DNA of 60,326 bases, counting the filler, from Sphacelaria rigidula (taxonomy: Eukaryota), in NCBI GenBank assembly GCA_964200075.2. It is 6 parts of 6 records of this genome, joined end to end, with 100 filler letters (N's around TTAATTAATTAA, not from the genome) between each part and the next. Parts side by side here need not be neighbours in the genome. Positions count along the whole stretch, not along the records: positions 30,215 to 40,185 come from CAXNAA020007388.1; 5 more parts are not named here. One strand, written 5' to 3'. Positions within the stretch are counted from its first letter, which is position 1; the number at the start of each line of letters is the position of its first letter. Under the pieces are notes generated by a model that was not told the DNA's origin, did not search any database, and saw only the letters and a list, made by a program, of their open reading frames with translations. Positions 9,898 to 51,362 of the stretch are shown one piece after another. The position numbers were made by a program, and so were the translations under genes.

Positions 9898-9928
<31 letters not shown>

Positions 9929-19705: not shown

Positions 19706-20922
19706 CTGTTTTCCAGTTGCGGTGAAAATATCGCATGTTAAAACATCAAAGACATCGAACTTTCGATACGTGAGGCATGGTAATTGTCGACATATCAACT
19801 CATAGAACCGTCAATTTTGGAAAAAAACAAGGTTGTAATTACAAGGGTAGTTTAAATATGAAACTATCGATGGTGAAGACCTGTTGAGCGTGAGGTATCA
19901 ACTTTGAGCGATATATACCGCTGCGACCCGGTGGTGTGATGGTCCGACTGTCGCCATTAGGGTGGAGAGAACGAGGGTGCGATTCCCGATGCGTTGGGTT
20001 TTTTCTTCGTAGTGTATGATTTTCACCGTGGAAAGCGTGAGAANNNNNNNNNNNNNNNNNNNNNNNNNNNNNNNNNNNNNNNNNNNNTTAATTAATTAAN
20101 NNNNNNNNNNNNNNNNNNNNNNNNNNNNNNNNNNNNNNNNNNNTTTTTCGCGACACTTTTAGCTGGTTTTGGGGGGGGGCTATCGTAGAAAGTGTCAACG
20201 ATAAAAATTCTCGCGACAACAAACGTTCCGCTTATAGACACCAGCGGACAGGACCGACACAAAGTTCTAATCCCAACACCAGAAACCCTGGTACCTTCAC
20301 TACGGATCGCTTAGATCCATGACGTTACGACGCCGGCGTTCTTCGGTCTTCCGCGCAGTCGATAGCACGAGCAAAGACTTTTCTGCCCGCGGAGTCCGTG
20401 TCAAAAATTGCTCACTCGATTGCCCCGGCACTATCCAGGAGCGTAACTGATGGCCGTTCATATCGACCCCCGTCTCGAACCTCCACAAAATGTTCAACAC
20501 AGCCCGCAGAGCCCGCGACTGAGATTATCCGCCCGGCTCTCCCGGCACTATGCAGGAGCGCAACTGACGACTGTTCAAATCGACCCCCGTCTTCGTCCCT
20601 CCACACACCGCGTAACAGTTGTGCCACCCCGCGACTCAGATCTACACCCGGCACTAAACTTGGTCATTCAGTACCGAGTATAAGTCTGAGGTGTGGGAAG
20701 ACCAACCGCCAGTCCCTAAGGCAAAGGCTTCCCTCAGCGACCGCACGCACAGGTAGCAGCAAGCCTTTTTCAGCTGACCCAAGTGTTGCTGATTTGAACC
20801 TGATCACATCGGATCATGTAATTCCCAATCAGTTCGATCGGGCTCCTTCCCCGCGATTTTCAAGACGCACGGACCTACCTTAGACCGGTTTAAATAACAA
20901 TCGCCCCAACATATCTTCGGCT

Positions 20923-23900
20923 ATGCCCCAACAGCCAAACTTGCCCACGGAAAGCAGCCCACAAGTTTCGCTCCGTCATGCCCCGATGCTGACCCCATCC
21001 ACGCAACTGGACACAGTTGTGGTTTCATCCCCAAATGTTTCGGAAGTTCCCCGACCTTTGTCACGGCGAAAGAGAAAGCCCCATAAGCATGCCCTCAAGG
21101 ACGCGCGCGCATCATTACGTACACCTCTTTCGAGCGGAAATCCTCGACCTCAATCTCTCCAAAATGCGACGACTTTGAGCTCGACGGCTGTATCAAGTAT
21201 CCCGGAAGAAATAAAATCACATGATTCTGACGGCACTACTTCTTCAATCGACGGCTGCAGCCGCGTACATTCTGGATTCCCCTTTGACGGTGATCCCTGC
21301 CAACCAAAGACGATAATTTACGTAATCGCCAAATACCGTGCCACACCTGGAAATAATATACCGTCCACCCCCTTCTCTGGTGAGACATCTGACCCACCGG
21401 CAGATCATCCACCGTGCGTTTTTGCTGTCAGCCCCGCTGCTCCTGACCAGTTTACCTTGCCGGAGCACGTTCCGGGTCTTGTCGGCGGCAAAGTGTCTGT
21501 CGATCCGGTCACTTTCACTACTCGCGTTGCGATCCATGCCGGTCCGAACGCTATCACGCCTACGAAATGCGCATCCTTGTTGGACAGCGGCAACCCGCAA
21601 GCATTTATTCGACAATCAACATGGAAACACATGAAACAGACTGGCGCTGCTACTTCAGCTTGCGAAACCACCACCAAACCTCGCGTGTGGGGCGGTTTCG
21701 GTGACTCTGCCGCGCCACTGACGACTCATAAATCCGTACGTCTCAGTGTGCAATTCTTTCACAACACCACTCGATCTGCCAGCCTGGTAGTCTGGGCATA
21801 CGTTGTCCCCGACAGCACCATGCATCACGCCATATTATTGGGCAGAGATAGCTATATGCGGTTTAATCAACGAACCTACCGCACGCTTCCACCACTAACG
21901 CCACATTCCCCGCCGCGTGGAGAATTCAACCTCGAGCACTTCGGTACTCTCCACAGCCCCCTGGCTCATCGAAAGAATCGTCAAGCAAGCGGAGCTGCTC
22001 ACCACCTACGATATAACGGTAGCGTGGGTATTACACTCTCCGACGACCCCCAACTTCTTGAAGTTGCACCAGTTCGCCGAAATGGCATGCCGGCACTTAC
22101 GGGCCATTATGTTGCCGAAACGTTACCCCGTATTGGCGCACCAGCCGACATAGAACATTTTGTGTCGGTGGGACAACAACTCCTCCCTCTTACGGGACAT
22201 GCTAACTTGGAACCCGGCGATGTTTCAGGAATCGCCGCTGCTCCCCTGATGCACATCCCACTCGAGACGTGCGTCACAGAGCCTGCCGCGCCAAACACCA
22301 AATCTCCGGCGGAGCCAGTACATTGTGTCGATGAACCCTATTTCGATCTCGCCTCTGCTGCTCCACCCCAGATCCACACCGTGGATCCTGCTCAGTCAAA
22401 TTCCGATCCTCCTGCTGAAGTGCTTCAACGCATATCACCAGATTCCCGGAATAGTTGCTTGCACATGTGGAACCATCTGCCGTCACACATGCGCGACATC
22501 AAGTTTGACCTTCATGGGCCCGGTTGGGAACCGGCAGTCATCCAAGAACTCAGTGATGTCCTGCTACAGTACCCAGACCGATTTTCCCGATCCAAGACGG
22601 ATCTTGGGCCTTGCAAACACTGCCCTTAGAGGTTACCCTTTGACCCGATGTCTCGCCGGTTTCTTCTCGGCCATACCGTACCAACCCAATCCTCACCAAG
22701 AAAGTTAACGCCATCTTGGATGCGTATTTGGGAGCGGGACTAATCCAACATTCCTCCTCTCCCTGGGCCTCGCCACTTGTGGTCGTCCCCAAAATGGATG
22801 GAAACATACGCATCACCGTGAACTATCAACGGTTGAATCGCGTTACTGTCGTCAGTAAACTTTCAATTCCCCGCATTGATGAAGTCTTTGAATCCTTAGG
22901 CGAAGGCAAAATATTCAGCACCTTCGATCTCGCTTCTGGAGTATTTCAGAATGCTATACACCCTGACACAGTCCCACTGACGGCTTTTTGCACCTCGTCC
23001 GGACTCTATGAGTGAATTCGCATGCCACAAGGCGCCGCCACTGCCCCGGGATACTTTCAACGCTTAATGCAACGCGCCACCGAGGGCCTCGAGCACGTTA
23101 TCATGTACTTGGATGACGCTATCGCTTTCGATGCCTCACCTATTGCGCATATACGCACTCTACGATAAATTCTCTCGCGCCTACGTACGCACGATTTGAA
23201 ACTGTCTCCATCCAAAGCTCGCCTTGGCGCGACTGACTCGGATTTCTTGGGGCATTCCATTTCGCCAGCAGGCCTGCATCCGGATACAAAGTCAAGGCGA
23301 TGACTGATTTGCCGATGCCAACTAACATGTATCAACTTCGCTCATTGTTGGGTGAGCTATCCTACAACCGCAAAACTATGCCGAATTTATCGAAGCGGAC
23401 TCGCCCTCTTACTGAGCTACTCAAGAAAGGAGCCGTGTTTTCTTTTACCACAGGAATGGAGAATATCACCCGCGAATTCCTCAAGACGCTTACCGAAAAG
23501 CCCGTTCTTTGCTTTCCTGACTGGGAGGCAGTACAAGATGGCTCCCGCCTTTTTTAACTTCATACTGACGCCAGCACAAATGGTTATGGAAGAGTTTTGA
23601 ATCAACCTCAGGTTGATGGCTCTGTCCGACCCATCCTCTATATCAGCCGCGCTACCCTGCCCAACGAGGCCAATTGGAGCCCGCTAGAATTGGAAGGCGG
23701 AGTAATCACTTGGGCCATTAGGCGCCTTCGACAATATCTGTTTCACGTGCCCTTCGAGATCTATACGGATCACGGAGCACTTGAACAACTCGCCAAGGTT
23801 GGTGAACACAACCCTCGTGTACAACGATGGTTGGAATTTCTAACAGCATGCCAGTATACCATTAAGCACCGTCCAGGCAAATCCAACGGGAACGCGGATA

Positions 23901-26759
23901 TTCTTTCCCGCTTACCTCTGCCACCTACGGCCGCAGATTTCAGCCCGGCTTGCCGTTTGACGGAACCCGATGAACCCGGAATTTACGCGATCAGACGTTT
24001 TTCAATGCCTGTTTACGCCCTCCACCTCCAGTGCCCGGAAACCGGTATGCATATGGGAGGACCTCGCCCTCTGCCATATGACGCCGTCTTGAGTGGGTTA
24101 AAGCCCACTACCTCCGATTTCGTCGATTTTCGCACTTGCGGTACTCACGCGCAGCTCTTTGTAGAGACACCTCCCGTCACCCACCTTATCTCCGACAACA
24201 CGCGCTCCCGGTCTGCCGCCCGCACCACTCCGAGTGCCCCGCCGCCACCAACAACACCTGTAACTCCTATGAGCCACCCAGCACAAGTTCCACGGACCAA
24301 CACGCAAGGCTCCGCGAAAATATCTGCACCGTGCGCCACGCGCCGCGAACAATCTTCGCCGCGCACTGATACAACCCCGCCGCCTATAATGGCGCCGCAC
24401 ACATCTCCTGCCCCTGAGCACGGATCTGACGACTCGTCTCCAGCTCCCGGAACAGAAATTGATGTCGGCATTTCTGCCCCGTCGCCTATTCCCCCGCCGC
24501 CTGTCCTACCATGTTTGGTCGGCTCGCTAGCGGAAGGTTAACTAAGCGAGTTTCTCGCCAGCTACTCTCACCGCGATTGGGCTCGTGAACAAACCGCAGA
24601 ACCGCTATGTCGCGCAGCCATCCGATACTTACAACTTGACTGTCCAGTCCCTTTTCCGTCGACACTTCTGGCCCCGGTTGGAACACTGCCACCACCAGTT
24701 ATCTCTGACGTGTTCGAGCTCGTGCGTAAAGGCACCCTTTTTACTACGGATGAAGGCGTGCAACTACTCGTGCGTCGGCCCACGCCTTTGACAGGCGCAA
24801 TTTCCGCCCCAACTACGGGACGCACCGCACGACTACTTAATGACGAACCAACGCGCATATATGTGTCATTATTAATGCGCCCCTGGGTCATGAAAGGCTG
24901 TCACACAGAATTGTCATGCCACCTTGGCGTCACCCGCACCCTCGCGCTCTTGGAACGCTTCTACTGGTGGGTTGTTATGGAAATTTCAACCCGCTTCTGG
25001 ATTCGGCGATGCTTGAAATGCCAAGCCCGAAAAACTTCACGAGAGACAGTGCGCTGGCCCATGATCTCTATGGGACTCCCCGATGAGCCTGGCCACCTCG
25101 TGTCCTTTGACTACTTCGGCCCTCTACCTACCACAGGTCGCGGCAACACCTACATCTTACTCTTCACTGACCGATTTAGCCGCCACGCGTCCATGTACGC
25201 GGTAACCGCCGCAGATTTCACTGCCGCCGGAACGGCTGACATACTGGTCCATGATTACATTAAGCACTACGGTTGCCCAATGCGATTACTTTCAGACAAT
25301 GGTCAGCAATTTTGTTCAGAGCTCTCTGATGAGCTTTACAAGCTCCTGGGCATACGCAAAATTGCCACGAGCGCCTACGACCCGAACGGTAACGGTGGTA
25401 CCGAAAGAGGTAATCACACCATGGCCCAGATGCTCTCTATGGTTGTCAATTACCGTCAAAATGACTGGGACCTACATCTCTAGCACATCATGTTGTCCTA
25501 CAACAACTCGGTTAATGCCGCCGCCGGCCTTTCTCCGAACGAACCCCATCTTGGACGTTTTTCTCGGCTGCCTATCACCGTGTTTGAGCGCCACACGTTC
25601 GACGGACACCAAGGATTGGATCAGGACCAGATATCCTACAACGAGCTAACGCATGCACGACAACGCAGCGTTCACCCTCATGCGCGAACAACACGCTGTC
25701 AATGCCTCCCGCCTAGAGAGATCTAACACCGCTCTCTACAACCTCATGCACAAACACCCCAACTGGAAAGTTGGTAATTGGGTTTGGATCTGCAACAGCT
25801 TGTCGACCATCCGCCAAGGCATCAGTAAGGCAGCCAACGAAACAATTTGAAGACGAAATTGTCCCTCAATTGGACAGGACCATTCAAGATCCTGACAATC
25901 GGACCATCGTCATCATCACCGGATGAAAAACCCGTCGGTGACAAACTGCTCTATCTCGACTTGCCTTGCGACTTCCAGGGCAAGGACACCAAGCCCCGCG
26001 TTTCCGTGCACAATTGCAAACCCTGCACGAACCCGCATGATACAAGCAACATGCCCAAGTGCCTGCCTGCCGGACTCACACAGTATGTTCTCAACAGCTA
26101 CTCGACCAAGTCCCCGCCCTACCATGTTACAACCGACGACGTGACGGAACAGCCCCTTCGATTAACCGTGTCCTCCATTTCCGGCCACCAGATAACCCGT
26201 GGTCGAGGAGGCAAGATTGCTGTCATGTATAAGACACACTGGCACGGTCTTCGGAGAGCGTCTTGGGAACGCGAATCCGACCTGCAATTGCACCGTCGTG
26301 CAATCCTCCTTTACTGGACGCAATCCCAACATCAGCATCTTGCTCACAACAAAATATCGCAACATGCGCCGTGGCGCAGCAGCCCGCGAACTTCACCGCA
26401 ATCAGGGACTACGCTTTGTCGCCGATGGTTACGAACTTGTACCCTCCAAGACTTGTAAAACGAAGTTCTTCGCGAACCAGCGACTCTTGCCCAAGGGCAG
26501 CTACCTTTGGTTCAAAGGCAGCGACAACCTCTGGTGGTTGGGTCAGACCCACTCCGCTAACCTCGTTTCGGCCGACACATACATCGTGCGCTTCATCGAT
26601 GACCCTGGACCCACACAGCTCAAGCTTCAGCCAGCGCTATACACCACCAGCTCATCTGCACCACGCGGATCCTGTCTCCAGCACCTCAATTCCAAAGGAC
26701 TTCGCCGCGGTCTCCAGTGCAACATCGACCACACCCACGACGTCCACGCCCCGCTTTGA
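20923..26759 (+). pseudogene. pol: Gypsy pol polyprotein with stops and frameshifts
   Basis: Protease LLDSGNP...ILLGRD; RT SSSPWASPLVVV...MPQG...YLDD; RNase H HTDAS...FEIYTDH...NGNADILSR; integrase H-H-C-C, SFDYFGP, LLSDNG, NGGTER; GPF motif WTGPFKI. Disrupted near 22625, 23013, 23167, 23557, 24539, 25481, 25665, 25847 and 26350. Confidence 0.92.
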
Positions 26760-28439: not shown

Positions 28440-30046
28440 GGATGCTTCTCGCATCCAAGCCCCCATCCTCTTTTCACATGTCGAACCGCCACCATCAAGC
28501 TGAGGCGATATATTGGGCGTGTGACGCCCTGAATCACACCGCGACGACGTCCAACCCAGGAAACAGTTCGCCGTACGAATGTGGTACGCTAAGGCAGCGC
28601 CTTCACCACCACACCCGTTCCTTCGTCCGGGCTATTGTCGCTGGGCCCGACCGTCACAGTCGTTCCCCATACGCAAGAGTAGCTTCTACCTCGGGCCCGG
28701 AATCGACCACCCCCGCGATTCATTTCGGATGCTGACGCGGGCAAACAAACTAGTGGAGACAAGCTACGTCACCTGGGAGGCGCCGACGGTCATGGTGGTG
28801 CCGCCGGCACCACTACAGCAGCCAGCTTCGCTGAGGTTGGCGGGAACGTCGGAGCTGGGAGGTACGTCACAGCCGGGAGGAACATTAGAACTGAGAACAA
28901 CTCGGGAGCCGGAAGGGCTGGATGATCTCGCTTCTGCTCCATCGTTTCCATGACCGTTACTGGGGAAATAAATATCTCATCAGCGTCGAGTGACATTTCC
29001 ACCGAGGAGTGCAGACCATGGTGGTGGCGGTAAGCGGGGTTCTCTTGACGATGAAACCTAGTCGGCCCCCGAAACCAAAACTGCTTCTTCAGGCGTTTAT
29101 TTGCCACTGGTGAGTAGTGAGCCGTTCGTCGACGATGACCTCTCAGTCGACGGGAGCATCTCGTCTTCATCAGACGAAAGTGTTCCAGTTCCGACGGCAG
29201 CGCGGACTGCGGCGCTGCAACTCGAGTCAAATCTGGTTAGATCTTGATATGGCGAGAAGCTTGGGTAAATTACAGCGCAAACCCGAGCGCTCAATCAGGA
29301 AGCATCTGGGCTCGTGACCATGTTAGGGCCCGATGAAGGGGGCGAAATAATCGATGGCCTGCTGGCGGTAAAGGAGGATACCCGTAAGCCGGGCGAGCTC
29401 CCTAAATGTCTCGTCAAGGAAGGGGGGCCGAAGCCGTTGTCATCCCCTGCGGTGTGTTCATCACAATATTCGAATGTGTGGATAGAGGCGATGGGGATAA
29501 AGTTCGATGGGCTTATGGCTGCCGGGACGTTTGCGGACGTGACTGACATTACAGAGAGGTGCAACATTGTGGGCGCGAAGTGGGTGTATAAGTGGTAAGG
29601 TGATTGACATGGTATGGTTGACCGGGCGAAAGCTCATGTGGTAGCTGTGGGGTATAGTCAGGTAGAGGGAGTTGATTACTCCGACATATTTGCCCCTACG
29701 GCATCTGCAACGTCAAACACGTCAGTGGCGGCTATGGCACATGAGTTAGACGGGAATATAACGTACTTTAATGTAGCCCGGGCTATCTTTAAGTCGGAGT
29801 TAGACACCGATATCTACTTGCGTCTGCCCCCCGGTTGTGGATCCGTATCTGGTGAGGTAGTCGGCCTTCACAAGGCTTTTTACGGTTTGAAGCAGAGTGG
29901 TCGCGAATGGTGTCAACATACTATTGTCAACCCTGGCGGAGTGTGTTTTCGAGCAATGCTTGGTAGATCCCTGTGTTTTTCGACTGAGGGTTGCTGAAGA
30001 CCTTGTGGTGATGACGGTCGTTCATGTGGACGATAAAATGATAGAA
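28440..30046 (+). mobile_element. Ty1/Copia pol fragment (integrase C-terminus to RT), decayed
   Basis: WACDALNHTAT...SPYEMWY...FYLG...VTWE (integrase end) precedes the RT motifs NIVGAKWVYKW, AKAHVVAVGYSQVEGVDY, IYLRLPPG, FYGLKQSGREW, DPCVF and VHVDD. IN-before-RT order is Copia-type. Contains stops and frameshifts; cut at 30047 by a MITE end. Confidence 0.92.
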
Positions 30047-30257
30047 GAGTCATCCTACGATAGCGGGGGGGGGTATTTTGGGCCATTTGTTGCTCGAAAT
30101 TTTGAGTCAGATCGNNNNNNNNNNNNNNNNNNNNNNNNNNNNNNNNNNNNNNNNNNNNTTAATTAATTAANNNNNNNNNNNNNNNNNNNNNNNNNNNNNN
30201 NNNNNNNNNNNNNNGAATGAGTACGCCCCCCCCCCTCCCCCTCCTTCCTCTCCCCAG

Positions 30258-33200
30258 GCGCCAATTTTGTTGAGGGTACTGCTGGACTCTATCTTACCGA
30301 AAAAAGCTGATGAGAACAAAAAGTCAGCCGACGATCGACGGCGACCAACGGAAGCCGAACGAGGGTGGTGCTTTGAGCTAGCGAGCGCCGTTCTGGACCT
30401 GTTGGTAGAACATATCCGTTCCCCTCACAGCGCAGAGCTGTGGCTCGAGCTGCACTACGGTCTCGGTACGGCGGCGGCGCGGTACCGGGCATCATTGCTC
30501 ACGGGCCCGACAGCTGTCGCCGCCGGAAGCGCTGGTGGGATCTGTCATGAGAGCGCTGAATGTGCAGCGGTGCGGCGTACGGCAGATTTGCTGTCGCAGG
30601 CCGTGGGTCACATGGGGGGTATCCTCCTTCGAGAAGAAGCTGTTGGTGTGAAGCAGGCTGCTCTACTCGCCGAAGTGCTGGCAGACTTGACTGCCCCTGA
30701 ATTGTTCTGGGGAGAAGGCACGTCTCCCGGCTGCAGGACGGCGGTGGTTGAACTTCTGGCCGTTGCTCTATGCGCTCTGCACAGGCATCAACGGTTCGTG
30801 AAGGCGGTACCGCGCGTTATCCGAGCGGTCGTCGCCCCTCCGACAGCTGATGATGGCGCTGGTCGAAAATTTAGCCTCGTGCACGACTCGGTTGACACCC
30901 ACCCGGCGTTGGTGCTAGCGAGGTCTCTGTTGGGCGGGGTCGGTGCGGAACGGACGGTGAACAAGCCGCCGCCTATGCGCGTGACACGCCTCGTAGCCCT
31001 GCCCCCCCTGCTGGAAGCCTGCGCTGGCCCGCTGTTTGATAGGGCGGATGTTGCTTTGGAGATATTGATGCGCGTGATTCATGGGACGGGTTTAGGGTTG
31101 GTATTTGCTGGAGACCGGGTGAGCGTCGATGTGGGCGGACGCAAAGATAGTGGCGAGGATATGGATGAGGGGGAGGAAAAAGAGATAATGGACAGCGCGG
31201 AGGACCGCATGGGTGCATTGGCCACCGTGAAAGCGGGTTCCGGCATCGCGGATTTGCCGATTGGCGTCGCCACGGGTGCAAAGGTGCGTCTGGTGTTTTC
31301 ATTATGTGCGATGCAGTGGATGGCCCCATGACGGCACTGCACATCCCGACGTCACCGATTGTTTGGTGTTATTTTTTGTTATAATTATTTTTTGTTTGTC
31401 GCCCTTTGAACACCCCCCCCCCCTTCCTCGGGATAAATCCCTGGTCTCAAAGGAGTAACCCATTTCTCCCCGGTGCCATGTACTGGATATGTCAAGTTTT
31501 CGAGGCAAGTTAGGTTTTTATGCACGTTTGATCGTGTTCATTGAAGATTTTGTGCTTGTCTGACCCTGTCTAATAACAGTTCCGAAAAAGTATATTCCGC
31601 GTGGGCGGCTACGTCCAAGGTATTTGCGTGATCCGTCAATACGTAATGCACCTTCTGCGTTAAGGTAGTAGTTTTGTCTGACAGCGGTAAATCCGTGTAG
31701 AGGGCCGCTCACTGCAGTGCATACTACACCGGGTGTGTCAAGTCTCTCCTTCACGCTTTGTAGCAGCGGCAAATTATTGTAAGAGATTCGGATTCGCGTG
31801 CTATGAATAATGTGGCTGATGTTATTGCGAGCAGGGTGACTCGGTATCTCCACCTGCTGTTGCTTTGGCCATGCCACCGTTGTTTTTGCTCAACTCTAAC
31901 ATGTTTTCGTCGATCACCCGTGATTGTCGTCGCAGTTGTTGGACATGTGCTGTGCTACCATCAAGGCCGCGGTGTCATCGCTGAGGGATGTGAACGTGAG
32001 GTGGGTGTGTGTGTGGGGTGTACTCATGATATTACATGCCGTAGTCATATGACCGTTGACCTCGCATACCTTCAAAATCGGGACGGAGCACGCCGGATTT
32101 TCGCCGGACCGGGCTTGGTAGGTGAGGGTGGATAAAGTGGAAATCCGATCGAAGGGTCCTGGCAGTTGGCAGCAGTCCCAGTACCAACATCGGCTGTTTC
32201 CGGCAATATACTTTCACGAGCAACTTCCCTCCCCGCCCTAATGATGCCTGACTACAATAAACGTCGAAACGTCGTCTGTATGTCGCTGCTTTTGTACGTA
32301 CGTTTCATCCATGCTGCACTCATAACCCAACTTACTGCCACCACGCCGCATAGAACTCAAGAAGCCCAATTTCGGACAAGCGATCGGAATACGACGTTGA
32401 CCGTATCCTCAACCTAAATATTTGGGCTCGACGGAGTTCTGATGCCATGATTTCTGCTTGTTGTCAATTTATGCTCCCTATACACCACCATCAGCCGATC
32501 ATGATCACTCCTTGGCCTTTCACCCCCAATTGCATGCTCGTCCCCAGTCGTTGTTGGCTCTCACATTGCCTATTCCACCTCCCCGCCCCACAATCCCTCT
32601 GCCCGCCTCGCTGCCGCCGACGGCAGTCAAGCGGGCCCCCGCTCCTTTACCGAAGAAGTATCAAGGACGATTGCTGCCCTACGCTGCCTCCCATGTCTCG
32701 TGGGGAGTTTTGCCATCACGGAAGATGCTCGGCGGGAGGCGGTGGGATCGGCGCTCACCGTTGTTGACGGACTCCTGACAGCTCTTTCCCCGGCTTCGAA
32801 AGTTGGTGATGAAACGGCTGGGGTTGTAGCCGTGGAGAATTGCACCTCAGCCAAGGGAGCCCACAGATCACCCACGATCGGCAAGCAAGGTCGAAGCAAA
32901 CGACGCAAGAAGGGATTGAAGGCTGCAGTCGTTGTTGACGATAAGAAGGCCGAGGCAGAGGCTGGCGGTGATCGTGCAGGTGAAGACCTTCCGTGGGGAA
33001 GCCAAGGAGAAGCTGTCGTGGCAAGGGCGTACGCTTTGGAGGCCGCGGTGGGATTGTGTTGTCTCTTGCCGGCGGCGCGAGGGGCGGATGGGGAAGACGA
33101 TGGTATCGCGTGCGGCGGGATTATAGCGAGGCTGGTTGAATGGCATGAAAGGTGAGCGTTCCACTTTTCGTGCGTCCCTGGCTGTTGTACCTATGCCTGC

Positions 33201-36200
33201 AAACTTTGACAGCCGAGGCCTGCGTTTGAGTTGGAGGATATGTCCATAACGGGGTTGTGTAGCTGGTATTTCATAGCTTGTATCTTTCATAGATTGTTGT
33301 CGGAGGATCCCCGCTGAACTGTCGAGACGCGCCCCAGCGTTCGCAGTGGGCGTAGAGGCCTTCACGTGGAACCACAGCTCGAATCGTATTTGCACGACCA
33401 TTATTATTCATATGGAGAGCATCAACCACATTGGACGAAGACACCCTAACCGTGCCAAGTCAATGCAACACTCATGTTTTCATTTCCGTCTTCCGGCAAT
33501 CTCCTCGCTGTCCTCATAGGGCAATGTCCTGGCTACGGGCCGAACCAACGTCGATCGCAACGCTGCGTGCCGTGGCAGCCCTTCTCCGCGCAATCCGCGA
33601 GGCAGCCTCGTCCACCCCCACGACGACCACCAATACCAAACCTTCCCCTCACCTCTCGGCCGAAGCATCGCTGTCCGTCCTTACCCTCCTTGAACCGAAC
33701 CTAGCGTCGCCTTGCCACCTGCTGCGGTTGTCCACTGTACGCGTCCTGGCGCGGTATGACCCGCTACCGTTCAGCAGTGACAGTGCGGCACTCCCCACCA
33801 TTGAGCGGCAGCAGCGACAGCATCAAGAGATAGCCTGCGATTTTCTCGAAGTCGCAGAGGCGCTGGAGACCCTCCCGATCTCGCTCGCCGCCGAGCGAGA
33901 CATAATGTGGCGGCTGGGTCAGCTGGAGGTAATGGGCAGGGGCGGGCGGCTGCCGCGGCCTTACGTGAGTCTTATGGCTACCCATGCACTGGGCTTACTG
34001 CGCGTGAAATTCTCTGGGGTGTGGCCCAGAGCGACGGCGATAATCTCAACGTTGTGCCAGCGGCCACAGCAGCGGCAGCTGGCGTGGGAATCCGTGTACA
34101 CGGCCCTGCGAAAGGTGATGCCACCGCCTGCAACGCGACATATCCACCAGCAATCTTCTTCCGCATCGGGTCAAACGCCGGTAACGCCACACATCGAGCG
34201 AGAGCAGGCGGATGGCGGCCGCGGGGGAGAGATGACAACGGCGGCGGCGGCAGCAGTCGCGACTAAGGCCGTGATAGAAGGACAGTCAGGCCTGCGCAAA
34301 TTCGTACCACCTCCGCAGCCGTGGGTGTCGCGGCTGCTGCCACACGCGGCGGTGCTGGATGCGGGACCGACGGAGGAAGTGGACTTGCCGGTTGCTCTGC
34401 AGGGGGTGTTTTTGGATGAGTCTGTGAAAGCTGGGCTCGAACCGGAGTCTGGTGAGGTGCCGCTGTGGGCGAGTACTGACGACGACGCTGCATTCACGCA
34501 GGTTCGTTGTGCTTGCAAGTGTCACCAATAACTTTTAGGTTTAGTAGAGGGTTATTCTGTGTGTATGTTGAAAATACTTGGAGTTTGGTCGTTGCTGGAT
34601 ATCGGTCGGTCGATGAACTTGTTGGCGCATTTGTACGAGTAGTTGCCTGAGATGAACCATGAACACAAATCTCGGTGACTTGCGATTATACTCCTCTGCC
34701 AAAAGGGCGCTGGGGCACCAACTCCGTACAAGCATTCGGACAAGCATGGTTTTGTATCACCATTGCTACATACAATTTTATTCAAACTTTCTACTTTCGT
34801 CCTCCCTACCCTCCCCCAGTCCGGTCCGTCTCGAAAGGTATACGTGGTCAATGGTCGAACGACTAAGGCAAGCAATGAATTAGTATGCCCTCCCTGAAAG
34901 AAGAAAGAGATATACCAGTCGTCGAGAGGACGAGGAAGTAGATGGACAGAACTGCTCCTGTGGTAGAGCAAAAGAGAGCAGAAGTCACATAGTGGCAGAA
35001 TGTGAACTAAACAAGGAGGAGCGGGACGTGCTAGAGGGGAAATTGCGGGACGTGAACGAAGGTAGGATGAAATCGCTTGATGCATTAGACAGTAGGGAGA
35101 AAACGATTATTATACTAGGATATAGCTGGGGGCCACAGACGGCGGAACAGGACGGGGATAAGATATGTAAAAGGTTTTTGTGTAATGTATAGAAAAAACG
35201 TAATGAGCACCTGAATGTTGGAAGTGTCTCTATTAGGAGTAGGAACGGTGCTCCGTCTCGAAAGGGATGCGTGGTCAATGATCAAACGACCAAGGCAAGC
35301 AGCAACTGAGTACGCCCACACCCCCCGCGCCCCCCCCTGTCCGCTTCGAACCTATGTTTTCTCTNNNNNNNNNNCCACTCGATGCCTTGTCAAAGCTCTA
35401 CCGACCAGTGCAAGCATTAAGTGTGATAACGTCCCCCCCCCCCTCCCCCCCTCCTATCTATTTCGTCTATTTGTTCTCGTAGGTATGGGGGGTACTTTCG
35501 CAGTGCCATGAGCTCCTTCAGCAGCACAGCCGCACTATTGTCCCCCTCTTCATGGGCTTCATGCAATACCAGTATCTGGGATCAAGAGCGTTCCCTGACG
35601 ATCCAGAAACGCGCGCGGTGGAAATTGAAGGCCATCTAACGGCCGCTGAGCGAGCGAGCGCGGGGCCGGGAGGATGGGCTCCGATTCGTAGACAGAGAAT
35701 CGCTGCCATCGCCGAGGGCGATGGCGGCGGAAGTGTCGAGAAGAAGGAAGGAGACGATAGCGGAAGGACGGCGGATCGGCGGAGCGTTCGAGTACGCCTT
35801 GCTGCGCTGCTGGCGGTTTTCGCTGAAGCGTCGGGCCCAAAGAGTCTTTACAAGCAGCGCGTGCTGTTTAGAGTGTATCGAGCGCTCCTCGTGATGCCGG
35901 ACACGAAGATCGCGCGGTTGGCCCTGCGGTGCATGCTGTCCTATAAGCCGGCGTTCATGACTCCATACAAGGTGAGAAGCTGGGGCGATCGGGGAACGCG
36001 CGGGCGGCCGAAACAGCATGTGTACTGCCTTCGGCATTCCGTCTGATATTGATGCTGTGTTACTCGCTGGATTCCGGCTTTCGCCTGCTACGGTGTTTGT
36101 ACTGTAGTCCCTTTTTCATTCCAAAGAAATATGGTGGGTAGCGTGGAGGAAGATAGTGAGTGAGTGCCGACGCACTTTGGAGGCGAATCACTGCCAGACC

Positions 36201-39200
36201 AAAACGCTTCTTGTGTTCAATTGACCATGTTGGGCTTAGATGTGTTGCACCTCGCCCTGTACGCATTAGGAGTTGCCGCAACTTCATGTGTGCAGGGAAC
36301 GCCTATCGGCCCGTGTGATGTAGCTTGGTCCAATGGTGATCACCTGCCGAAAACGCGTATCTCTGTCCGGCGGAATCATAGGCGCATCTAGAAGGACTCA
36401 TGGACGACGAAGCGTTCCGGGACGAGCTGGTTATCTTCTCGCTCGAGGGGGAGAGCAATGGAGAGGACAGCGGTAGCGCGATCACCCGAATAACTGCTCC
36501 CGATAGCGATAGGCGCGCGTCCGACGGACTCACAATAGATGCCCTTCACCGCCCGCGCCTCCTGCCTCTTGTGATCCGCCTGGTCTACGGCCGACTTGCC
36601 GGCTCGGGGTCTCGGGGCCGAGCTGGTGGCCACGGGGGGCCGGCCGCACGGCGCGCCGCGGTGCTTGCCTTCCTCTCGGGTCTGCACCCAGAGGAGCTGG
36701 CAGAGCTGTTCGCCTTGATGGTCCGGCCGTTCTTGGCGCCTGACGTGAAGCCAGCGCTTGAGCAGAGGTCGGAAGTTGAAAACACGGACGGCAGCGTGGA
36801 AAAGGTAGACGACGGGCCCGCGGACTGGGACGAGACTAGCGGTGGAGCAGAGCAGGCGCGGACGGTGTTGTCTCGCGTGGCCGGAGTGACGGTAGAGCAT
36901 CTCGGTGGCGTGTCTGCGTCGCGGCAGGCGGGGTTCTTGAAGATGGTGAAGGAGGTCGCGAAGCAGCTAGGGCAGCGGGCGTTGCCGTACGTTGACTGCG
37001 TGCTTCGGTTGGTGTTGGCCTTGCTGGAGCACTCAAATGTCGTGGCCGAGTTCGAGAGGCAATCCCGCAGCATACAACGTCGAGAAGAGGGCGAGGAGGA
37101 AGGAATGCGCACCATCGACGAAGGCGAAGGCGAAGATGAAGGGGATGCCGATGATGTCGAGGGAGAGGAAGGAATGGGAGTGGACGAGGACTCAGTTTCG
37201 CCATCGGCGTCGATGAGCACGGAAGCCGCCTCAACACCTCCAGCCGATGCATCATCTCTCTCCAGGAGACGTATGGCCTCGGGGACACTCCGCACGTTGT
37301 GTCTACGAGCTATGTCCGAGCTGTTCTCGCAATTTTCGTCTACCTTCGACTTCCATTCGCGCCAGGATATGTTGTGGCCGCCCCTCGCGGACCCTATCGC
37401 GCGCCTCCCCGGCTCCACTGTCGGCGCCGTGAGGGCGCCAGCGCTCCTAGCCCTCGCAGGTACTATAACGGAAAGCGAGAGTCTCCTGCCGATGCTTTCC
37501 GCCTCTTCGGGAGCAGGGGGCGGATCCCTTGTACCAGCGGTGTTGGACTGTATCTCGGCGGGCAGCGGGGGAGGTCGAGCCGCCGGTCCCGCCGTGGTGG
37601 GAGCGGCGCTGACCGTCGTGGAACGGCTACTGACGTACGACGGTGGTTCGTTGCTTGGTCCTCACCTCAACCGTCTCATTTCCAATTTTACGGCGCGCTT
37701 GAGCGTGATCGGGACATCAGGGAAGGGCCAGGGCGGCGCCGGCGGACTAGACGCTCACCTGGAACAAACGCTCACGATATTGGCCCGCATCGCGGAGATG
37801 GCCACGTCTGGAACGTTCGGGAGCGGTGGCAAAGGCAGCAACGGTGATGTCGTAGACGCGTCTTCCATGTCGCAGTTGGTTACTTTGCTGATGCCCGCCC
37901 TTCAGCCGGATCGGCGGGCGTCCGATGAGGCCAAATCCTCCGTCCTGCGCACCATCACGGCCTTGGCACGTCGAGTAGACGCCGCCGGCGCCCGCCGCGC
38001 ATGGCCGGCTCTGTCCCGTCTTCTGGGGCCTGCGGGAGCGCGACCCTCAGGTATGGCGGCAGCAGGCCCACGATCCGAGCTCGTCCACGCGTTGGAGGCA
38101 CTCGCCAGTAGGCCCGATCTTGCGGCCTCAGCTGGACCGGCGGCGGCGCTGGTGGCCGAGCTCAACGCGCGTGATCCGGTGACGCTAGACGAGCCGGACT
38201 TCACGCGCGCCGTTCCAGCGTACAACTCCTTATCGGAGGGGTCTGGGTGGCGGGATGTTATTGTCGCCGGTGGGATCCCCGGAGAGGCGGGGGCCGGTGG
38301 AGCGGAAGGCATCGTCTCGCTAGGCGGCGCGCTTGCCGCGACCCCGATCGCACAGCACTGCTTTCATGCGATGCACGAGCAGGAGGTTGCCGTAAGAGGT
38401 GCTGCGGCAGCAGCACTCAAGAGGCTGGTGCGTGAGGTTCGGGTGCGAGAGCAGGCTTCTGCAGCGTCAGCGGGAGGCGAGCGGTGTCCTTGGGAAGGGT
38501 TGATGCGAACCGTGGTCATGCCTGGGCTTCGTGCGGGTATGGCATGCAGGATGGAGATGGTACGAAAGGGTTACATCTCGCTCTTGCGAGAGACGGTTGC
38601 AGCCTACCAGAACGATGATCGTGTGCCCGCAGCCGTTGCTTCTGCGGATGATGGAGATGAAGATATGGCAGAGGCATCGAATGTGATGAGTTCGGATGCG
38701 ACGGACGTTGGCTCGGCGTCCGTTGTCCCCGCTGACTTGTGGGCGCTGGCGCGGGACGAAGATCCAGAATCCGACTTTTTCCTGAACGCCTGCCACATGC
38801 AGGTGCATCGTCGAGCACGAGCGCTCGCGAAGGCGAGAAAAGCAATCGAGGACAGTGAAGCAACGGCGGTGACCGGATTGGATGGCGGACTGACGGTAGA
38901 CAAGAAAGACGAGGCCGACACGCGAGTGCCGGTGCCGGGATCATGTCCTTTCCGCGTCTCAACACTCGTGCACTTCGTGCTTCCTCTGGCGCTTCACCCG
39001 CTGTACGAGGCGGCTAAAGTGTCGGAAGCCGGGCTGGTGGATCAAGCGGTACAACTGACTGGAGCGATCGCGCGACACCTGCCCTGGACACACTACAACG
39101 CCGCCCTGCGTAACCTCATTCAGCAGGTGGCCTCCGGCGGCAGCGAGGCCGATGGCCCCGAGAAAGAGCGGGCCATGATAAGCACTATATGCGAAATCCT

Positions 39201-39729
39201 GAGCGGCTTCCATTTCCCACTGAATCCCCCGACCGCGACCACCTCCGTCCCTCCCGAGGCAACCGGGGTAGTAGTCAGCGCAGGTACTGCGCCAGCAGTT
39301 GACGATAAGGCGGTGTCAACTGCTACTACTGCTGTCGACGGAGCTATTACCACACCCGTGGCAATGTCGGCGCCTACGGTTTCTGCGGCGGAGGCGAAGG
39401 GTGCCGCGGAAGCTTCGGGGAGCGCGGCGGCGGGCGACGCGGTCTGGCGCGCTGTGAACGGACGGCTGATGGGATCCCTCCGCGGCATATTGACAAAGGC
39501 GGTCAAGTCCAAGTCGGGGGGTACGGAGAAGGTGCTGCGTGCGCCGGTGGCGCTGGGAATGCTGAGCCTCGTGCGGAGGTTACCGTTGGAGGAGTATGCG
39601 CTGCAGCTGCAGCCGCTGATCATGGCGGTCTGCCAAAGTTTGAAGTCGAGGGATTCGCACGCGCGTGACACCGGTCGGGATACGCTGGCTAAAATGGCCC
39701 GAGAATTGGGACCGGACTATTTGCAACAA
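30258..39729 (+). CDS. UTP20: U3 snoRNA-associated protein 20 (SSU processome HEAT-repeat protein), internal part (exons 30258-31283, 31936-32000, 32627-33151, 33520-34501, 35483-35971, 36382-39729)
   Basis: Phase-compatible GT-AG exons encode a long helical protein. UTP20-like motifs: PYK|AHLEGLMDDEAFRDEL, HRPRLLPLVIRLVYGRL, RRAAVLAFL, DPESDFFLNACHMQVHRRARAL, LPWTHY, LKSRDSHARDTGRDTL. Confidence 0.9.
34823..34895 (+). mobile_element. Short 3' fragment of the same LINE
   Basis: tccgtctcgaaagg...gtggtcaatggtc...aaggcaagcaa...agtatgccc. Confidence 0.7.
34897..35330 (+). mobile_element. 5'-truncated LINE, ORF2 C-terminus with CCHC zinc knuckle; longest copy of the C-run-associated family
   Basis: Translates to NCSCGRAKESRSHIVAEC (C-x-C-x8-H-x4-C)...GAPSRKGCVVNDQTTKASSN-stop, then GTACG and a C-rich tract. 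Confidence 0.8.
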
Positions 39730-40285
39730 GTGAGTGACGTAGCTGTACTTCTAAAAGGCCAGCCAAGTTATTGGGGCCTTGCGTGTAGATAGTGTAGAAT
39801 AGTACTCAATGGGCAAAAAGGGCTCGCTGAATGCGGTATCTGGGTGGGTGAGATTCCTCAAACTCGATGGACACAACTTTCCGGAGGGTTCACGGAGAAT
39901 CTAGTTTGACTTTTATCGCGATGTCGACGTACGCCGCCATGAGGGCTGCTTTGGTCTTGTAAGATACCATGGTTAGGATGAATCATCACGATTAAGAATA
40001 ACCAAATCCACGATTTCTTCGGCCTGATTGCCCAAAAGGAAAAAAAAAGTTGACCGCTGGTCCAAGGGGCATCCACGCAACTTTTGCGCCATTTCATGTG
40101 TCTGGGCTGCTTGTACCTGGGTTGCAACGCTGAAAACAAAGCCTGGGGATTGATTCGTACGAGTCGAATCAATCATACTAAAACCNNNNNNNNNNNNNNN
40201 NNNNNNNNNNNNNNNNNNNNNNNNNNNNNTTAATTAATTAANNNNNNNNNNNNNNNNNNNNNNNNNNNNNNNNNNNNNNNNNNNN

Positions 40286-45373: not shown

Positions 45374-48300
45374 TCCCACCTTTCTCATCACTCCTCGCTC
45401 GAATCTAGTACTTGAAAGCTAACCTGCACGTGTGGTCGGTCCCCCGACTGTTCCGGTTCCATGTCGACCTCTGCACCGCAGGAACTACTCGCCGAGATGT
45501 GTGTCCCCCTAGATCAGCCCCAGCTCAAGGTCCTCATGAAAGAAATCGACACGGACGGGAGTGGTGAAGTCGACTTTGAGGAGGTGCATACATCGATACA
45601 TACCATGGCGTGCAGTGTGTAACCCCCCCCCGCGACGACCACTTCCATCGTTCCTTTTCTCACGAGGAGAGATATCTGAATGATTTCGAAAACAACAGAT
45701 TTTCCAGTTTGGGTGTCACTGCTACTGTGATAACACGTTTCATTGCGAGAATATATGGATATGGACGAGATTTGCTGGAGAATGTTGTACATTTGTGAAG
45801 TACCGTAGTGGATGTAAATCGGCGTTGCTGCATAGCGATGCTCGCAGCCCCGACTCCCCCCACTTCCGGCGCGAAGTCTTCCCCGCAATCCGCGTAATGG
45901 TGGTTATGGTGGTGGCGGTGCATCCTTATTGCTTGACACTGTTTGCTGTTGGGCTGAGGACGAACCGCCCTCAGCTGTCTTCTGAGGGAGGACAGAACAG
46001 TATCGAATCATCCTACGACGAGGGAGGGGTATTTGAATGCACAAAAACGAGGCTCATAAGTGTGTCAGACGATCTGCCACACTCGCGGTGCGCTTGTATT
46101 TGGTTCAGAACGGTGTCGATCGGTGTGAATGAGCGTTATTTATCTATAACAAGCTCGTTCGAGCAACCATTGCTGCTTTCAATCATGGATTGACTCGGAA
46201 TTTCGTGCAAGAAGTGGCCCAAAATCCCCCCCTCCCCCCTCCGGTGCTCCGTCTGGAAGGGGATGCGTGGTCAATGATCAAACGACTAAGGCAAGCAACA
46301 AATGAGTACGCCCTCCCCCCTCCCTATAGTAGGATGACTCTATTGTCGTACGACCACAGTCCCAGCAGCCTTGGTAACGTCGGCAATCAAGACAACCTCT
46401 GTATTCGTAGTTGGGGCGCTGCTTGAGCGTTGTGACGGTTTAAGAGGCAACCAACTAGACTACTGACCAGTCAGTGTTACTGGTCAGTAGTCTAGTTGGT
46501 TTCCTCTTTCACTGACTGGTCAGTAGTCTAGTTGGTTGCCTCTTAAACCGTCACAAAAGTTAGTCGTGGCGGTCCTCCCCCGTCACTTTCACTCCCAGTA
46601 GGGTGACTCCCCTTGCCAGCGCTCTATCGACTGCCGTCCGGATGTCTAATGTTGTCACTCTCATCATGCCCTAGAGTTACTCGTAGCCCCCGCTCTTTCC
46701 CAGAGTGTGTGCACCAGGGTCCCTAGCAGTCAACTCCAAACATAGCTACCAGGCTATACCCCACCCTTCTTCTTTTGGGCCCATTTTTTACTGAGGTTTT
46801 CTCTCCTCTTTTTTCTCCAAAGAAAGTGCGTCCGACGGGAATCGAACCAGCGACTAAATTTTGCGACGGTTTAAGAGCCAACCAGCTAGACTACTGACCA
46901 GTCGCTCAGTCGTGGGGGTTTGACCCCCGTCACTTTCAGGTTATCAGTAATCTAGTCGATTGTCTTTTAAACCGTCACAGCGTCGACGTAGTTTATATGT
47001 TGTGCCGTCGGACAGTTCGGTGAAAAACTGACCGCAAGAATGGTACCGATCTACTGCGCCGCGCCCTGGTGATCTAACTGGGTCAACAGCGGCCAGTTAG
47101 TGCGCTGTGTTGCAGGGTCGAATCCCAAAAGATACGATCTTTTTGCAAGCAAAATCTGATTCCTGTCGTGAAGAATGTGAGGACGCGAGTAGCGAAGGAA
47201 GCTCGACAAGATTCAGTACGGTGCGGAAGTGCTGGATGATCCCGTCCAATTCACGATGACAAAATGCCGGCGTTTACCGGGGTGTACATTGATTGATCCC
47301 CCGAGACTACTACGGACTGATGTCGAGGAAGGGAAGGTGTTGAGGCATGGCGCAAAAAACAACGAACCAGCAAGGAGCAGGAAGAGGGATCTTTTCTGGT
47401 GGTGGCTCAAAAACGTTTTCTATTTTCATTTTCCATACACCCACCAACGAAAACCGGTAAATAGAGAGGGAAAAAGTAAAAAACAAATGAAGTACGTACG
47501 ATAAGGAAAAGTTGGATGCTATCGGAAAAAAAAGAGACGGAAGTGTTCTTCATACCACGGTTGAACTGTAATGTAAAGCCACTCACTGCTTCCGCCGATT
47601 TTCGGGCAGTTTTATCGATGGTATCGAGATAACGCCTCCGCTTCTAGAAGTGCCGAAAAGACCAGAACAGTGGGCCTCTTTGCGAGGAAGTTCATCCATG
47701 GGTTGACGGGGTTCACTCTCCGAATGGAAGCCATGCGCATCATCATCGCTCAGGCTCAGGCTCAGGTATGTAGCGTATCGCCCACACACGATGAAACGGC
47801 CGCAGTAGTGAGCGAAGTAAAGTTCTCTCCACGTACACCGACATGCACGGTCCTTTTGCGCAAGGGCGATGTTTTGGGCGGTTGCAATACTATAGTGACT
47901 GCAAAAGAGTAATATATACGAAGTATATATGTATATATCGATAGGTATTTTGAGCTATTTTCAAAACCCTGTCATCAACGCAGCCTTGATTTTCATAGAG
48001 CATTGTATATATTGAGATAGTCATACCCCCAGACCACCCGGTCCGCAGTGCTAGAACATCAGGTCTTACGGCAGTCATTCCTGCACGACGTTGATCGTGA
48101 TCGTTGATCAACAATGTTTTGAACGTCAGTTGAGGTGAGTGACTGGGGAACGAAAGTCCGCGTGACCCGGCGGTTGACCCCTCCCCCCCCACCCCCCCGC
48201 CGCCTGCGTACGGCTATGTCATGCATGATCATGAGTACCCCCCCGCCGCCTAGGCTCTAGCAAAGAGATACCTTGAGCGTAGCGTGTATACATGGGGAGA

Positions 48301-49850: not shown

Positions 49851-50199
49851 TCTGCAAAGCGGCACGGCGTTGCATTAGCTCACGCAAACATGCACGCAAA
49901 GATTTATGTCCTGCGTGCGTACCCTGCGCTGCACCCTACCTACCATGCAGCGCATGTTAGCCCAGATGTACGCCCTACTGGCGCGCACAGCACGGCGCTC
50001 TACCAGGGCACGGGAACCTACATGTATGCGTGACCAACGCGCACGCCACGGTGCTCTCGCAGCGCATGCTGGCCTAGATGAATGGCGACCACTTACTCAC
50101 AACCGTACCTCCGGATGTGTGACTCCGTCTTCGAAGAGAAGATCATTTCGTCCGCGGCCTCGGGTCAGGATGACGGCTTGAGTTAGGGTTAGGGTTTAG

Positions 50200-50256
50200 G
50201 GGTGTACTCATGATCATGCATGCCATAGTCATCAGACCATTGACCACGCATTCCTA
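50200..50256 (-). mobile_element. 3' LINE fragment (variant subfamily) abutting telomere-like repeats
   Basis: Reverse complement reads ggaatgcgtggtcaatggtctgatgactatggcatgcatgatcatgagtaca-cccctaaaccctaaccctaa. Confidence 0.7.
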
Positions 50257-50451
50257 NNNNNNNNNNNNNNNNNNNNNNNNNNNNNNNNNNNNNNNNNNNN
50301 TTAATTAATTAANNNNNNNNNNNNNNNNNNNNNNNNNNNNNNNNNNNNNNNNNNNNCAGCCACCGTGATGAGCGGTGGCAAGCAAAACAAATTTGGACAA
50401 TCTTTGAGAAACTAAGAAATTACGGATTCTGCATACTTCTGACGCTGACTA

Positions 50452-50685: not shown

Positions 50686-51292
50686 CCGTGCGATATCACC
50701 GATTCGTGCGATTGATTGATTACCGCACTTAAATTGATCCCCCCAGAGATTCAGCCGTGGTCACATCAAAGATGTACCGGAGATTAGAAGCAAAACGGAA
50801 ATAACTCTCTCTCTAAAAGAAAGTGAAAGATATGACAGACGAACAGACAGAGTAGACCAAGAAAAAAAGAAAAAGAAAAATCAGGACGCAACGTGACGCT
50901 GAATAAAATCACAGCAGCTCTACAAATACACTCCTGCTATGTACAGACTCCGTCTGCATTTTCGCAAGTTATCATATGGATGTAACAGCGAGAAGTGTTC
51001 GTATACAGCGAAGGACACATTATATAACATACCGACGCGATTTCACACTTGGCGGGCCATACACGGATCGCTAGAACCCCGAAACACATGTCGTGATTAA
51101 GTAGTAGTACCGCGACCACATTTTTTCTTTTAGTATCTCGTGTATCAATCAATTTCGCTGAATCACTCCCGGCAGCAAGCTACCTCGTGCTTGAGGTTCT
51201 CTATGGCTCAGCGCACGTCCATGCAATGACGCCGATCCGTGCCGCCATGCGTATACTTGCCGTACCTATATAGTGACACCCCCATACTGGTG

Positions 51293-51362
51293 CTCCATCT
51301 CGAAAGGGATGCGTGGTCAATGGTCAGACGACTAAGGCAAGCAACAAATGAGTACGCCCCCC
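51293..51362 (+). mobile_element. Short 3' LINE fragment with 14-bp TSD
   Basis: TSD CCCCCATACTGGTG at 51279-51292 and 51363-51376. Confidence 0.85.

Follow-up and report, generated by a model that had tools for sequence, protein, structure and literature searches.

The DNA analyzed here, a stretch of 60,326 nt from the brown alga Sphacelaria rigidula (assembly GCA_964200075.2) referred to below as the window, consists of six contig pieces of about 10 kb each, and the distances between pieces carry no meaning. Four of the six pieces contain copies of a long interspersed nuclear element (LINE), a retrotransposon without long terminal repeats (non-LTR), that are followed by C-rich sequence and not by poly(A). 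The three exact target-site duplications (TSDs) found all started in C-runs. We propose that the element very probably inserts by target-primed reverse transcription (TPRT) from a nicked G-run while recognizing its own 3' end. The longest copy lies on the piece derived from CAXNAA020007388.1, which also bears a UTP20 match, and another piece carries an LTR retrotransposon.

Copies of the LINE family in the window

Copies were located by BLAST of positions 34897-35330 against the window, by a motif scan and by direct reading, and further copies were sought with an nhmmer profile built from the last 120 nt of the element. BLAST, the motif scan and direct reading yielded nine copies and nhmmer added three (Table 1). 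The window copies measured 23 to 424 bp, were truncated at the 5' side and shared one 3' end. The original prediction had announced at least nine such co-terminal copies on four contigs, and all nine that it listed were found where it had placed them. It had also placed the longest copy at 34897; this copy was present, but when its 5' start was set against relatives with ...DLDLPERRKRY it began about 6 nt earlier. The nine 3' termini read GTACG (six copies), GTATG, GTAC and GTACA (one each), in agreement with the predicted GTA(C/T)(G/A). C-rich sequence followed all nine and an A-run none.

Table 1. Positions of LINE copies, their tails and TSDs, and of other features of the window
Feature	Position	Strand	Remarks
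Copy, 118 bp	9771-9888	+	Ends GGGTACG
Tail of the 9771 copy	9889-9928	+	CCCCCCGCCA, then C30 from 9899; exceeds any TSD seen
Copy at contig start	30215-30235	+	Last 11 nt (GAATGAGTACG) at 30215-30225, then C10
Variant-B mini-copy, 72 bp	32020-32091	-	Ends GAGTAC, then ACCCCACACACACACCCACC; nhmmer
Short copy, 65 bp	34823-34887	+	Ends TTAGTATG; CCC to 5' end of longest copy
Longest window copy, 424 bp, 5'-truncated	34891-35314	+	Ends GAGTACG
3' module, ~68 nt	35246-35314	+	Last ~22 codons including stop; from codon comparison, loose ends and 5'-end clustering
C-rich tail or target behind longest copy	35315-35337	+	CCCACACCCCCCGCGCCCCCCCC
Diverged partial copy	35381-35424	+	After N10 gap; then C11TC7; weak nhmmer match, E 0.005
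Mini-copy, 68 bp	46243-46310	+	
TSD of the 46243 copy, 13 bp	46230-46242 / 46311-46323	+	CCCTCCCCCCTCC; 0 extra Cs
Variant-B copy, 32 bp	48206-48237	+	...ATGCATGATCATGAGTAC
TSD of the 48206 copy, 13-14 bp	48192-48205 / 48238-48251	+	CCCCCC(C)GCCGCCT; 0 extra Cs
Variant-B copy cut by contig end	50204-50255	-	Ends GAGTACA, then CCCCTAAACCCTAACCCTAAC (50202-50182)
Mini-copy, 64 bp	51293-51356	+	Possible 4-nt GGTG overlap at 5' junction
TSD of the 51293 copy, 14 bp	51279-51292 / 51363-51376	+	CCCCCATACTGGTG
Copy, 23 bp	56614-56636	-	Then C7 (56613-56607)
Diverged copy with internal A-run	60258-60322	-	Ends AAAGTAC, then C26 (60257-60232); weak match, E 0.0055 and 0.0065 in two profile searches; 5' end cut by window end
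LTR retrotransposon pol	20884-25483	+	RT_RNaseH 23558-24541; integrase zinc-binding and core domains 24542-25483
UTP20 match	36382-39792	+	1,136-aa open frame; N-terminal domain 4.7e-58
Linkers between pieces	9973-10072, 20044-20143, 30115-30214, 40186-40285, 50257-50356		N44-TTAATTAATTAA-N44
Extra N10 gap	35365-35374		

At 9735-9790 a direct duplication of CC(C)TCTCCCGACTATAATGTAATGAGC was seen at the 5' junction of the 9771 copy, which could have arisen by template switch or by double insertion.

C-rich sequence behind the 3' end

Together with 14 loci from other assemblies, the window provided 23 copies with an aligned 3' end. At least seven Cs in the 12 bases after ...GAGTAC(G/A) were present in 20 of the 23, against a background of 5,286 out of 225,846 12-mers (2.3%) in the same sequences. 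No aligned copy had an A-run after its 3' end, and the poly(A) tail of L1-like LINEs was accordingly not found among the 23. At all seven external loci that encode the same C-terminus the element ended in (A)ATGAGTAC(G), in diverged form in L007, and was followed by 8-13 Cs or by interrupted runs. The full-length intact elements L001, L002 and L005 bear the same 3' module and C-run. Additional, diverged copies with C-rich ends were present in the three records behind L005-L007, which belong to metagenome-assembled genomes (MAGs); they include L010 (GAGTACG followed by CCCTCCCCGCCCCCCCC) and L011.

Contigs of four public runs, X2 (organism A), X1 (an algae metagenome), X8 (organism A, guessed to be RNA) and X12 (organism B), were aligned to 34897-35364 (468 bp). 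The numbers of aligned contigs were 52,528 for X2, 42,800 for X1, 2,940 for X8 and 6,572 for X12. All figures given below for loose ends of these contigs hold among the rows listed; 1,433 further rows exist. Behind 35317, just after GAGTACG, the loose ends had a C-run as consensus (160 contigs in X2, 177 in X1 and 38 in X8), and the consensus stayed C for about 22 positions in X2 and X1 and for 17 in X8. A second group of loose ends, behind 35301, read ACAAATGAGTAC and then Cs (X2, 245; X1, 203; X12, 54 contigs). Agreement per position in the loose ends was only 0.43-0.64, indicating C-rich tracts that are not always pure runs. The pattern therefore recurs beyond the window, both in other assemblies and in four runs, two of which are labelled as different organisms.

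Target-site duplications and insertion into C-runs

TSDs were sought for nine copies, including the second copy in L006, and exact ones were found for three (Table 1). They are the three clean duplications of 13-14 bp named in the original prediction, at the same coordinates. Each starts in a C-run and begins right after the last base of the element or after extra Cs; the T-rich/AA nick site of L1-like LINEs was seen at none of the three. The 46243 mini-copy has no extra nucleotide at either junction. The 51293 copy carries six extra Cs at 51357-51362 before the right TSD, so that 11 Cs stand where the target had 5. These extra Cs had been predicted together with an oligo(C) RNA tail as their source; the Cs were confirmed, and the RNA tail is one of three possible sources.

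In the usual TPRT geometry, the position of the bottom-strand nick can be read from the TSD start. Applied to the three TSDs, it places the nick at the 3' side of the G-run, as GGG/G, GGG/T and GGG/T. A paralogous empty site at 30109-30046 (minus strand) has an unbroken C9 where the 46243 copy sits. Both sites belong to a short repeat of about 80 bp (30046-30109, minus strand, and 46191-46341, plus strand) with the structure GGCCCAAAAT-Cn-GCTATCGTAGGATGACTC and an internal C9, one copy of which has been struck by the LINE. The 50204 copy is directly followed by CCCTAA repeats, whose complementary strand would offer GGG ends. In this small sample of three TSDs, one empty site and two nested arrangements, tail and target are the same simple sequence, as in repeat-specific LINEs.

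The short C9 repeat may itself be a small family resembling miniature inverted-repeat transposable elements, with a G/C run. The motif CTACGATAG beside a C-run recurs near 146, 20179 and 28189 in partly palindromic contexts. The CCCTAA repeats at 50182-50202 are interstitial and telomere-like, lie directly behind the LINE 3' end and are near a contig end.

Coding capacity and the full-length element

The frame 34884..35309 of the longest window copy contains the CCHC motif CSCGRAKESRSHIVAEC, within ...NCSCGRAKESRSHIVAEC..., as had been predicted. Its TGA stop at 35307-35309 lies 5 nt before the element end at 35314, which bears out the claim that there is almost no 3' untranslated region (UTR). 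An in-frame TAG was present at 35190-35192. At 35191 nearly all aligned run contigs have G, giving TGG instead of TAG, which shows that the longest window copy is a dead fragment.

The C-terminal 141 aa matched a Sphacelaria rigidula gene model and unnamed metagenome proteins with 55-76% identity. One of the latter, P0003 (1,360 aa), ends in ...TKASNK. Its Pfam domains were Exo_endo_phos at 170-392 (3.4e-12), Exo_endo_phos_2 (3.3e-07) and RVT_1 at 740-989 (9.8e-31); FADD and the motif CPCGKAKESRTHIVGEC were visible in its sequence, and the reverse transcriptase (RT) is downstream of the endonuclease. The same C-terminus is encoded at seven loci from other assemblies. Open frames were found in L001 (712..4992, 1,426 aa), L005 (999..5147) and L002 (10..3771), and L001 and L005 are homologous from L001:121 and L005:287 to the 3' end with 78% identity. 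From these spans the element measures at least 5 kb and has one open reading frame (ORF) behind a 5' UTR of 0.7-1 kb. This ORF of about 1,360-1,430 aa comprises an unassigned N-terminal region, an apurinic/apyrimidinic endonuclease (APE), the RT and the C-terminal CCHC.

The APE motifs SWNV, QES, GDFN, DY and DH align with exonuclease III. When a profile of 21 family members was compared with the PDB, human L1 ORF2p (1.2e-77), the isolated L1 endonuclease (EN; 6e-16) and R2 proteins (1e-53) were matched. The RT relatives include Ectocarpus proteins with 66% and 52% identity, and the named protein matches were from Sphacelaria and Ectocarpus, both brown algae. An APE domain with its catalytic residues, an RT with F/YxDD and co-terminal 5'-truncated copies with TSDs are all present. 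Judged by these sequence features, the family is an abundant and recently active APE-type non-LTR retrotransposon of brown algae, and the non-LTR identity assumed in the original prediction is upheld by the full-length ORF of its relatives.

Three side observations concern the records used here. Positions 1-200 of L005, upstream of or within the 5' UTR, contain tandem A-rich units, each some 90 bp long and closed by a T-run. In the Sphacelaria rigidula gene model P0002 a class-3 lipase domain is fused to the final ~150 aa of the LINE ORF; the model is probably a chimera that annotation produced across an inserted LINE fragment. The LINE-bearing contigs L005, L006 and L007, and that of the protein P0007, are filed in bacterial MAGs (Sulfitobacter, Verrucomicrobiales, an uncultured bacterium and Parasphingorhabdus), which probably reflects algal contamination of the bins.

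The 3' module and its mini-copies

Two points went beyond the original prediction: the conserved, putative 3' recognition module lies inside the ORF, and it is apparently mobilized alone as mini-copies of about 68 bp with a fixed 5' end. In the comparison of L001 with L005, conserved residues were encoded by the same codon in both loci in 63% of 999 cases over the ORF, a share that rose to 22 of 22 within the last 24 codons. This difference indicates that the last ~70 nt are under constraint at the nucleic acid level in addition to the protein level. As in stringent LINEs, the 3' end is thus kept at the nucleotide level beyond coding need.

Alone, the module occurs as mini-copies of 65-72 bp. 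Eight of the ten short copies with a readable 5' end started at model positions 52-59 (window 35246-35253), and the 5' ends scattered over about 7 nt without being identical. In each of the four runs the loose ends before 35249 were C-rich (242, 214, 38 and 84 contigs). The depth summed over contigs, which is not copy number, peaked at 35233-35296, and X12 was almost confined to this interval. A tail variant, here called variant B (...ATGCATGATCATGAGTAC), was seen at 32091, 48206 and 50255 and in the second copy of L006, in short pieces only.

For the fixed 5' end three candidate causes may be named: the RNA may be trimmed to a protein-bound module, the mini-copies may be a separate lineage of tiny non-autonomous elements, or the 5' end may be joined by pairing of a G-run at the cDNA end with the C-run of the target. 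A known self-cleaving ribozyme was also considered and was dropped, as a search of Rfam at E<=1 with 34700-35364 gave no match. The CUGAGUA and GAAA stretches, compared by eye, do not seem to fit a hammerhead core.

The 65-72 bp units might also be an independent retroposon resembling a short interspersed nuclear element (SINE), with a borrowed LINE tail, that forms most copies; the window would then display chiefly this parasite and not how the LINE itself behaves. This is a possibility of some weight, although we lean against it. The depth peak, the near confinement of X12 to it, the clustered 5' ends and the restriction of variant B to short pieces all fit such an element, and in Ectocarpus the non-autonomous RTEX-N1_Ec32 of about 600 bp is described as sharing its 3' end with RTEX-1 and RTEX-2_Ec32, LINEs of the RTE-X group (PMC12477816). 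However, the same module and C-run terminate the intact full-length elements L001, L002 and L005, and the mini-copies do not share one identical 5' end, their starts being scattered by some 7 nt. A SINE-like origin would moreover complement TPRT from a G-run rather than replace it, as the integration machinery would be the same.

Copies were also nested or in tandem. A CCC links the 34823-34887 copy to the longest copy at the 5' end of the latter, and in L016 a long copy is followed by a C-run and this by a copy of 67 bp. Joints in the runs that go back 54, 67 and 87 nt had C-rich letters between the two sides.

Source of the Cs

The Cs behind the element could come from the target only, if the endonuclease prefers to nick G-runs, reverse transcription starts at the terminal G without pairing, and extra Cs arise by later slippage. 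Two of the three copies with TSDs indeed have no extra C, and C/G homopolymers are frequent in the window away from the copies. Against this stand the 51293 copy, with 11 Cs in place of 5, and the C consensus of about 22 positions in X2 and X1 and of 17 in X8, which is longer than TSDs of 13-14 bp; the C30 at 9899 and the C26 at 60257 are also longer than any TSD seen. We consider the target alone an unlikely source.

Several reverse transcriptases are known to add nucleotides without a template, and the RT could have added Gs by terminal transferase activity to the nicked 3'-OH of the target or to the finished cDNA. The C-rich sequence on both sides of the mini-copies, before 35249 and behind 35317, would be explained in this way. 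TSDs that open in a C-run and the empty site with C9 indicate, however, that Cs pre-exist in the target, and the clean junctions of the 46243 mini-copy also speak against addition, which makes this explanation rather improbable. The copy with extra Cs and the over-long tails favor a templated or an added tail and cannot separate these options.

That the C/G runs are a sequencing or assembly artifact, such as poly-G from two-colour chemistry, can be practically dismissed: some C-runs are near contig ends (9899-9928, 30226 and 60232-60257), but most are internal with unique flanks and exact TSDs, and they recur in independent assemblies and four runs, always on the sense strand of the element.

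Proposed mechanism

TPRT from a nicked G-run, by a LINE that recognizes its own 3' end, is the reading we consider very probable. The endonuclease would nick the bottom strand next to a G-run, on its 3' side, which is the left edge of the sense-strand C-run, and the freed 3'-OH of the G-run would start the cDNA from the extreme end of the RNA (...UGAGUACG), where the primer probably pairs with Cs behind the element end. Priming of a G-run on a C-rich RNA end, as put forward in the original prediction, fits this anatomy. The top strand would be cut 13-14 bp downstream, yielding TSDs that open with the C-run. Instead of poly(A), the element protein would probably recognize the last ~70 nt of its own RNA in the style of stringent LINEs, through a module that is part of the coding sequence and includes the stop codon. 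The Cs of the RNA would come most simply from read-through into the C-run downstream of an existing copy. As each copy would leave a C-run behind, old copies would become targets, giving nested and tandem arrays and long C tracts, and a ~68-nt module with a C-run would suffice for copying, giving many mini-copies with a fixed 5' end. The catalytic motifs of the APE are ordinary and its sequence is uninformative on nicking specificity; a preference of the enzyme for G-runs is suggested by the insertion sites.

A wider reading, which we hold tentatively and as a nearly balanced proposition, joins several of these points in one claim. Oligo(C) would play the part in this family that poly(A) has in L1, TPRT would be primed by a G-run, and the last 22 codons would serve at the same time as the recognition module; the smallest mobilizable retroposon would measure about 68 nt with its Cs added; the family would target itself and thereby seed and lengthen G/C homopolymers throughout brown-algal genomes; and RNA Cs gained by read-through would be a heritable tail that needs no tailing enzyme.

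Several observations weigh against TPRT from a G-run with an RNA-borne C tail. Three of the 23 aligned 3' ends, those of L015, the 34823 copy and the second copy in L006, were below the threshold of seven Cs; the next copy interrupts the tail of the 34823 copy, and the terminus of the L006 copy is duplicated. The diverged relatives L007 and L015 have weaker C-runs. A convincing TSD was absent for the copies at 9771, 34823, 34891, 56636 and 32091 and for the second copy in L006. Support for the target rule comes from three sites, a paralogous empty site and a telomere-like site, and support for a templated RNA tail from a single copy and the over-long tails, with two of three TSD copies lacking an extra C. 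The C30 and C26 tracts could alternatively have grown by replication slippage. Homopolymers of at least 8 in the window comprised 13 of C and 7 of G (20 in total) versus 10 of A and 11 of T (21 in total), and of the 20 C/G runs 12 or more had no recognizable LINE copy adjacent; with C/G runs so abundant, part of the association could reflect plentiful targets and not tails. Depth in the runs is a sum over contigs and not copy number, and all the runs, including X8 (guessed to be RNA), are stored as contigs, in which RNA ends are not visible. Finally, no RNA structure was supported in the module: folds of single sequences had z-scores of -0.6 to +1.0 relative to shuffles, RNAalifold gave 5 pairs with 0 compensatory changes among sequences that vary little, and three hand-drawn helices were 87% paired, no better than shuffles. 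Overall, we regard the interpretation given in the original prediction as partly supported.

Comparison with known LINEs

In L1, the endonuclease nicks TTTT/AA and the T-run primes on poly(A). The present family resembles mammalian L1 in its APE, RT and CCHC, in TPRT, in its 5'-truncated co-terminal copies, and in TSDs of 13-14 bp that open with a homopolymer complementary to the primer. It differs in that the homopolymer is C and not A, and hence not derived from polyadenylation, in the lack of a 3' UTR, in its one ORF with no separate ORF1 seen, and in the nucleotide-conserved 3' end, which points to a stringent and not a relaxed choice of template.

Kojima and Fujiwara reportedly described in 2004 microsatellite-targeting LINEs of the R1 clade whose tail matches the target. 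As in these elements, the tail equals the simple sequence of the target and copies pile into arrays; unlike in them, the target is a genome-wide homopolymer and not one microsatellite locus. An R1- or TRAS1-type EN chain was not among the 60 PDB chains listed, and the EN match of the profile was L1 EN.

Among stringent LINEs, the eel UnaL2 with its (TGTAA)n and the Drosophila I element with its (TAA)n tails have been reviewed, and such simple terminal repeats are considered to assist priming or slippage (PMC3747384). Our family is similar in having a conserved 3' end of about 60-80 nt, which it shares with mini-copies that may be short non-autonomous partners, and a simple repeat other than poly(A). 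It is different in that the repeat unit is a single C, that the module is coding sequence and not 3' UTR, and that no stem-loop was supported in it by folds, RNAalifold or hand-drawn helices.

For brown algae, the Ectocarpus survey of 2025 lists CRE, RTE and RTE-X LINEs and three Unknown families, with RTE-X the most abundant (PMC12477816), and the LINE labels in a Saccharina study are Jockey, RTE, RTEX, L1 and CRE (PMC4421812). The family resembles Ectocarpus RTE-X as an abundant brown-algal LINE of APE type with short copies that share the 3' end, a likeness that does not imply RTE-X membership. A PDB search with one protein (L1 7e-21 versus R2 9e-20), the PDB profile search, a protein atlas and the names of the 120 RT relatives listed did not assign the family to a clade. 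The main text of the Ectocarpus transposable element survey contains nothing on C-runs, tails or LINE target sites; its annotation supplement may describe them (PMC12477816). The family itself is very probably already present in brown-alga repeat libraries. A literature search found no description of a LINE with a C-homopolymer tail, but as it was blind to the spelling 'poly(C)', this negative outcome is only weakly informative. LINEs whose tail is not poly(A) and LINEs that target their own repeat are already known; a C homopolymer as both tail and target is apparently new, within the limits of that search. An exact pattern scan of viral_contigs for copies gave no match.

Other features of the window

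Upstream of the pol domains of the LTR retrotransposon there is an open frame of 581 aa with no Pfam match. The UTP20 frame is a host gene in a GC-rich part of the piece that bears the longest LINE copy.

Implications

The common account of LINE integration invokes the pairing of poly(A) with a T-run, as in L1, or microsatellite tails. A LINE that uses a C homopolymer offers a natural test of what determines the target, the pairing of primer with template or the specificity of the endonuclease, and it raises the question of how an RNA without poly(A) and without a 3' UTR obtains a usable 3' end. The recognition signal lies in coding sequence, and a piece of about 68 nt is apparently enough, which would make a very small template. 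The family is very abundant, with 2,940 to 52,528 contigs per run on 468 bp, and gene models and bacterial MAGs are already contaminated with pieces of it. It may be a main source of G/C homopolymers, runs which break assemblies and can form unusual DNA structures.

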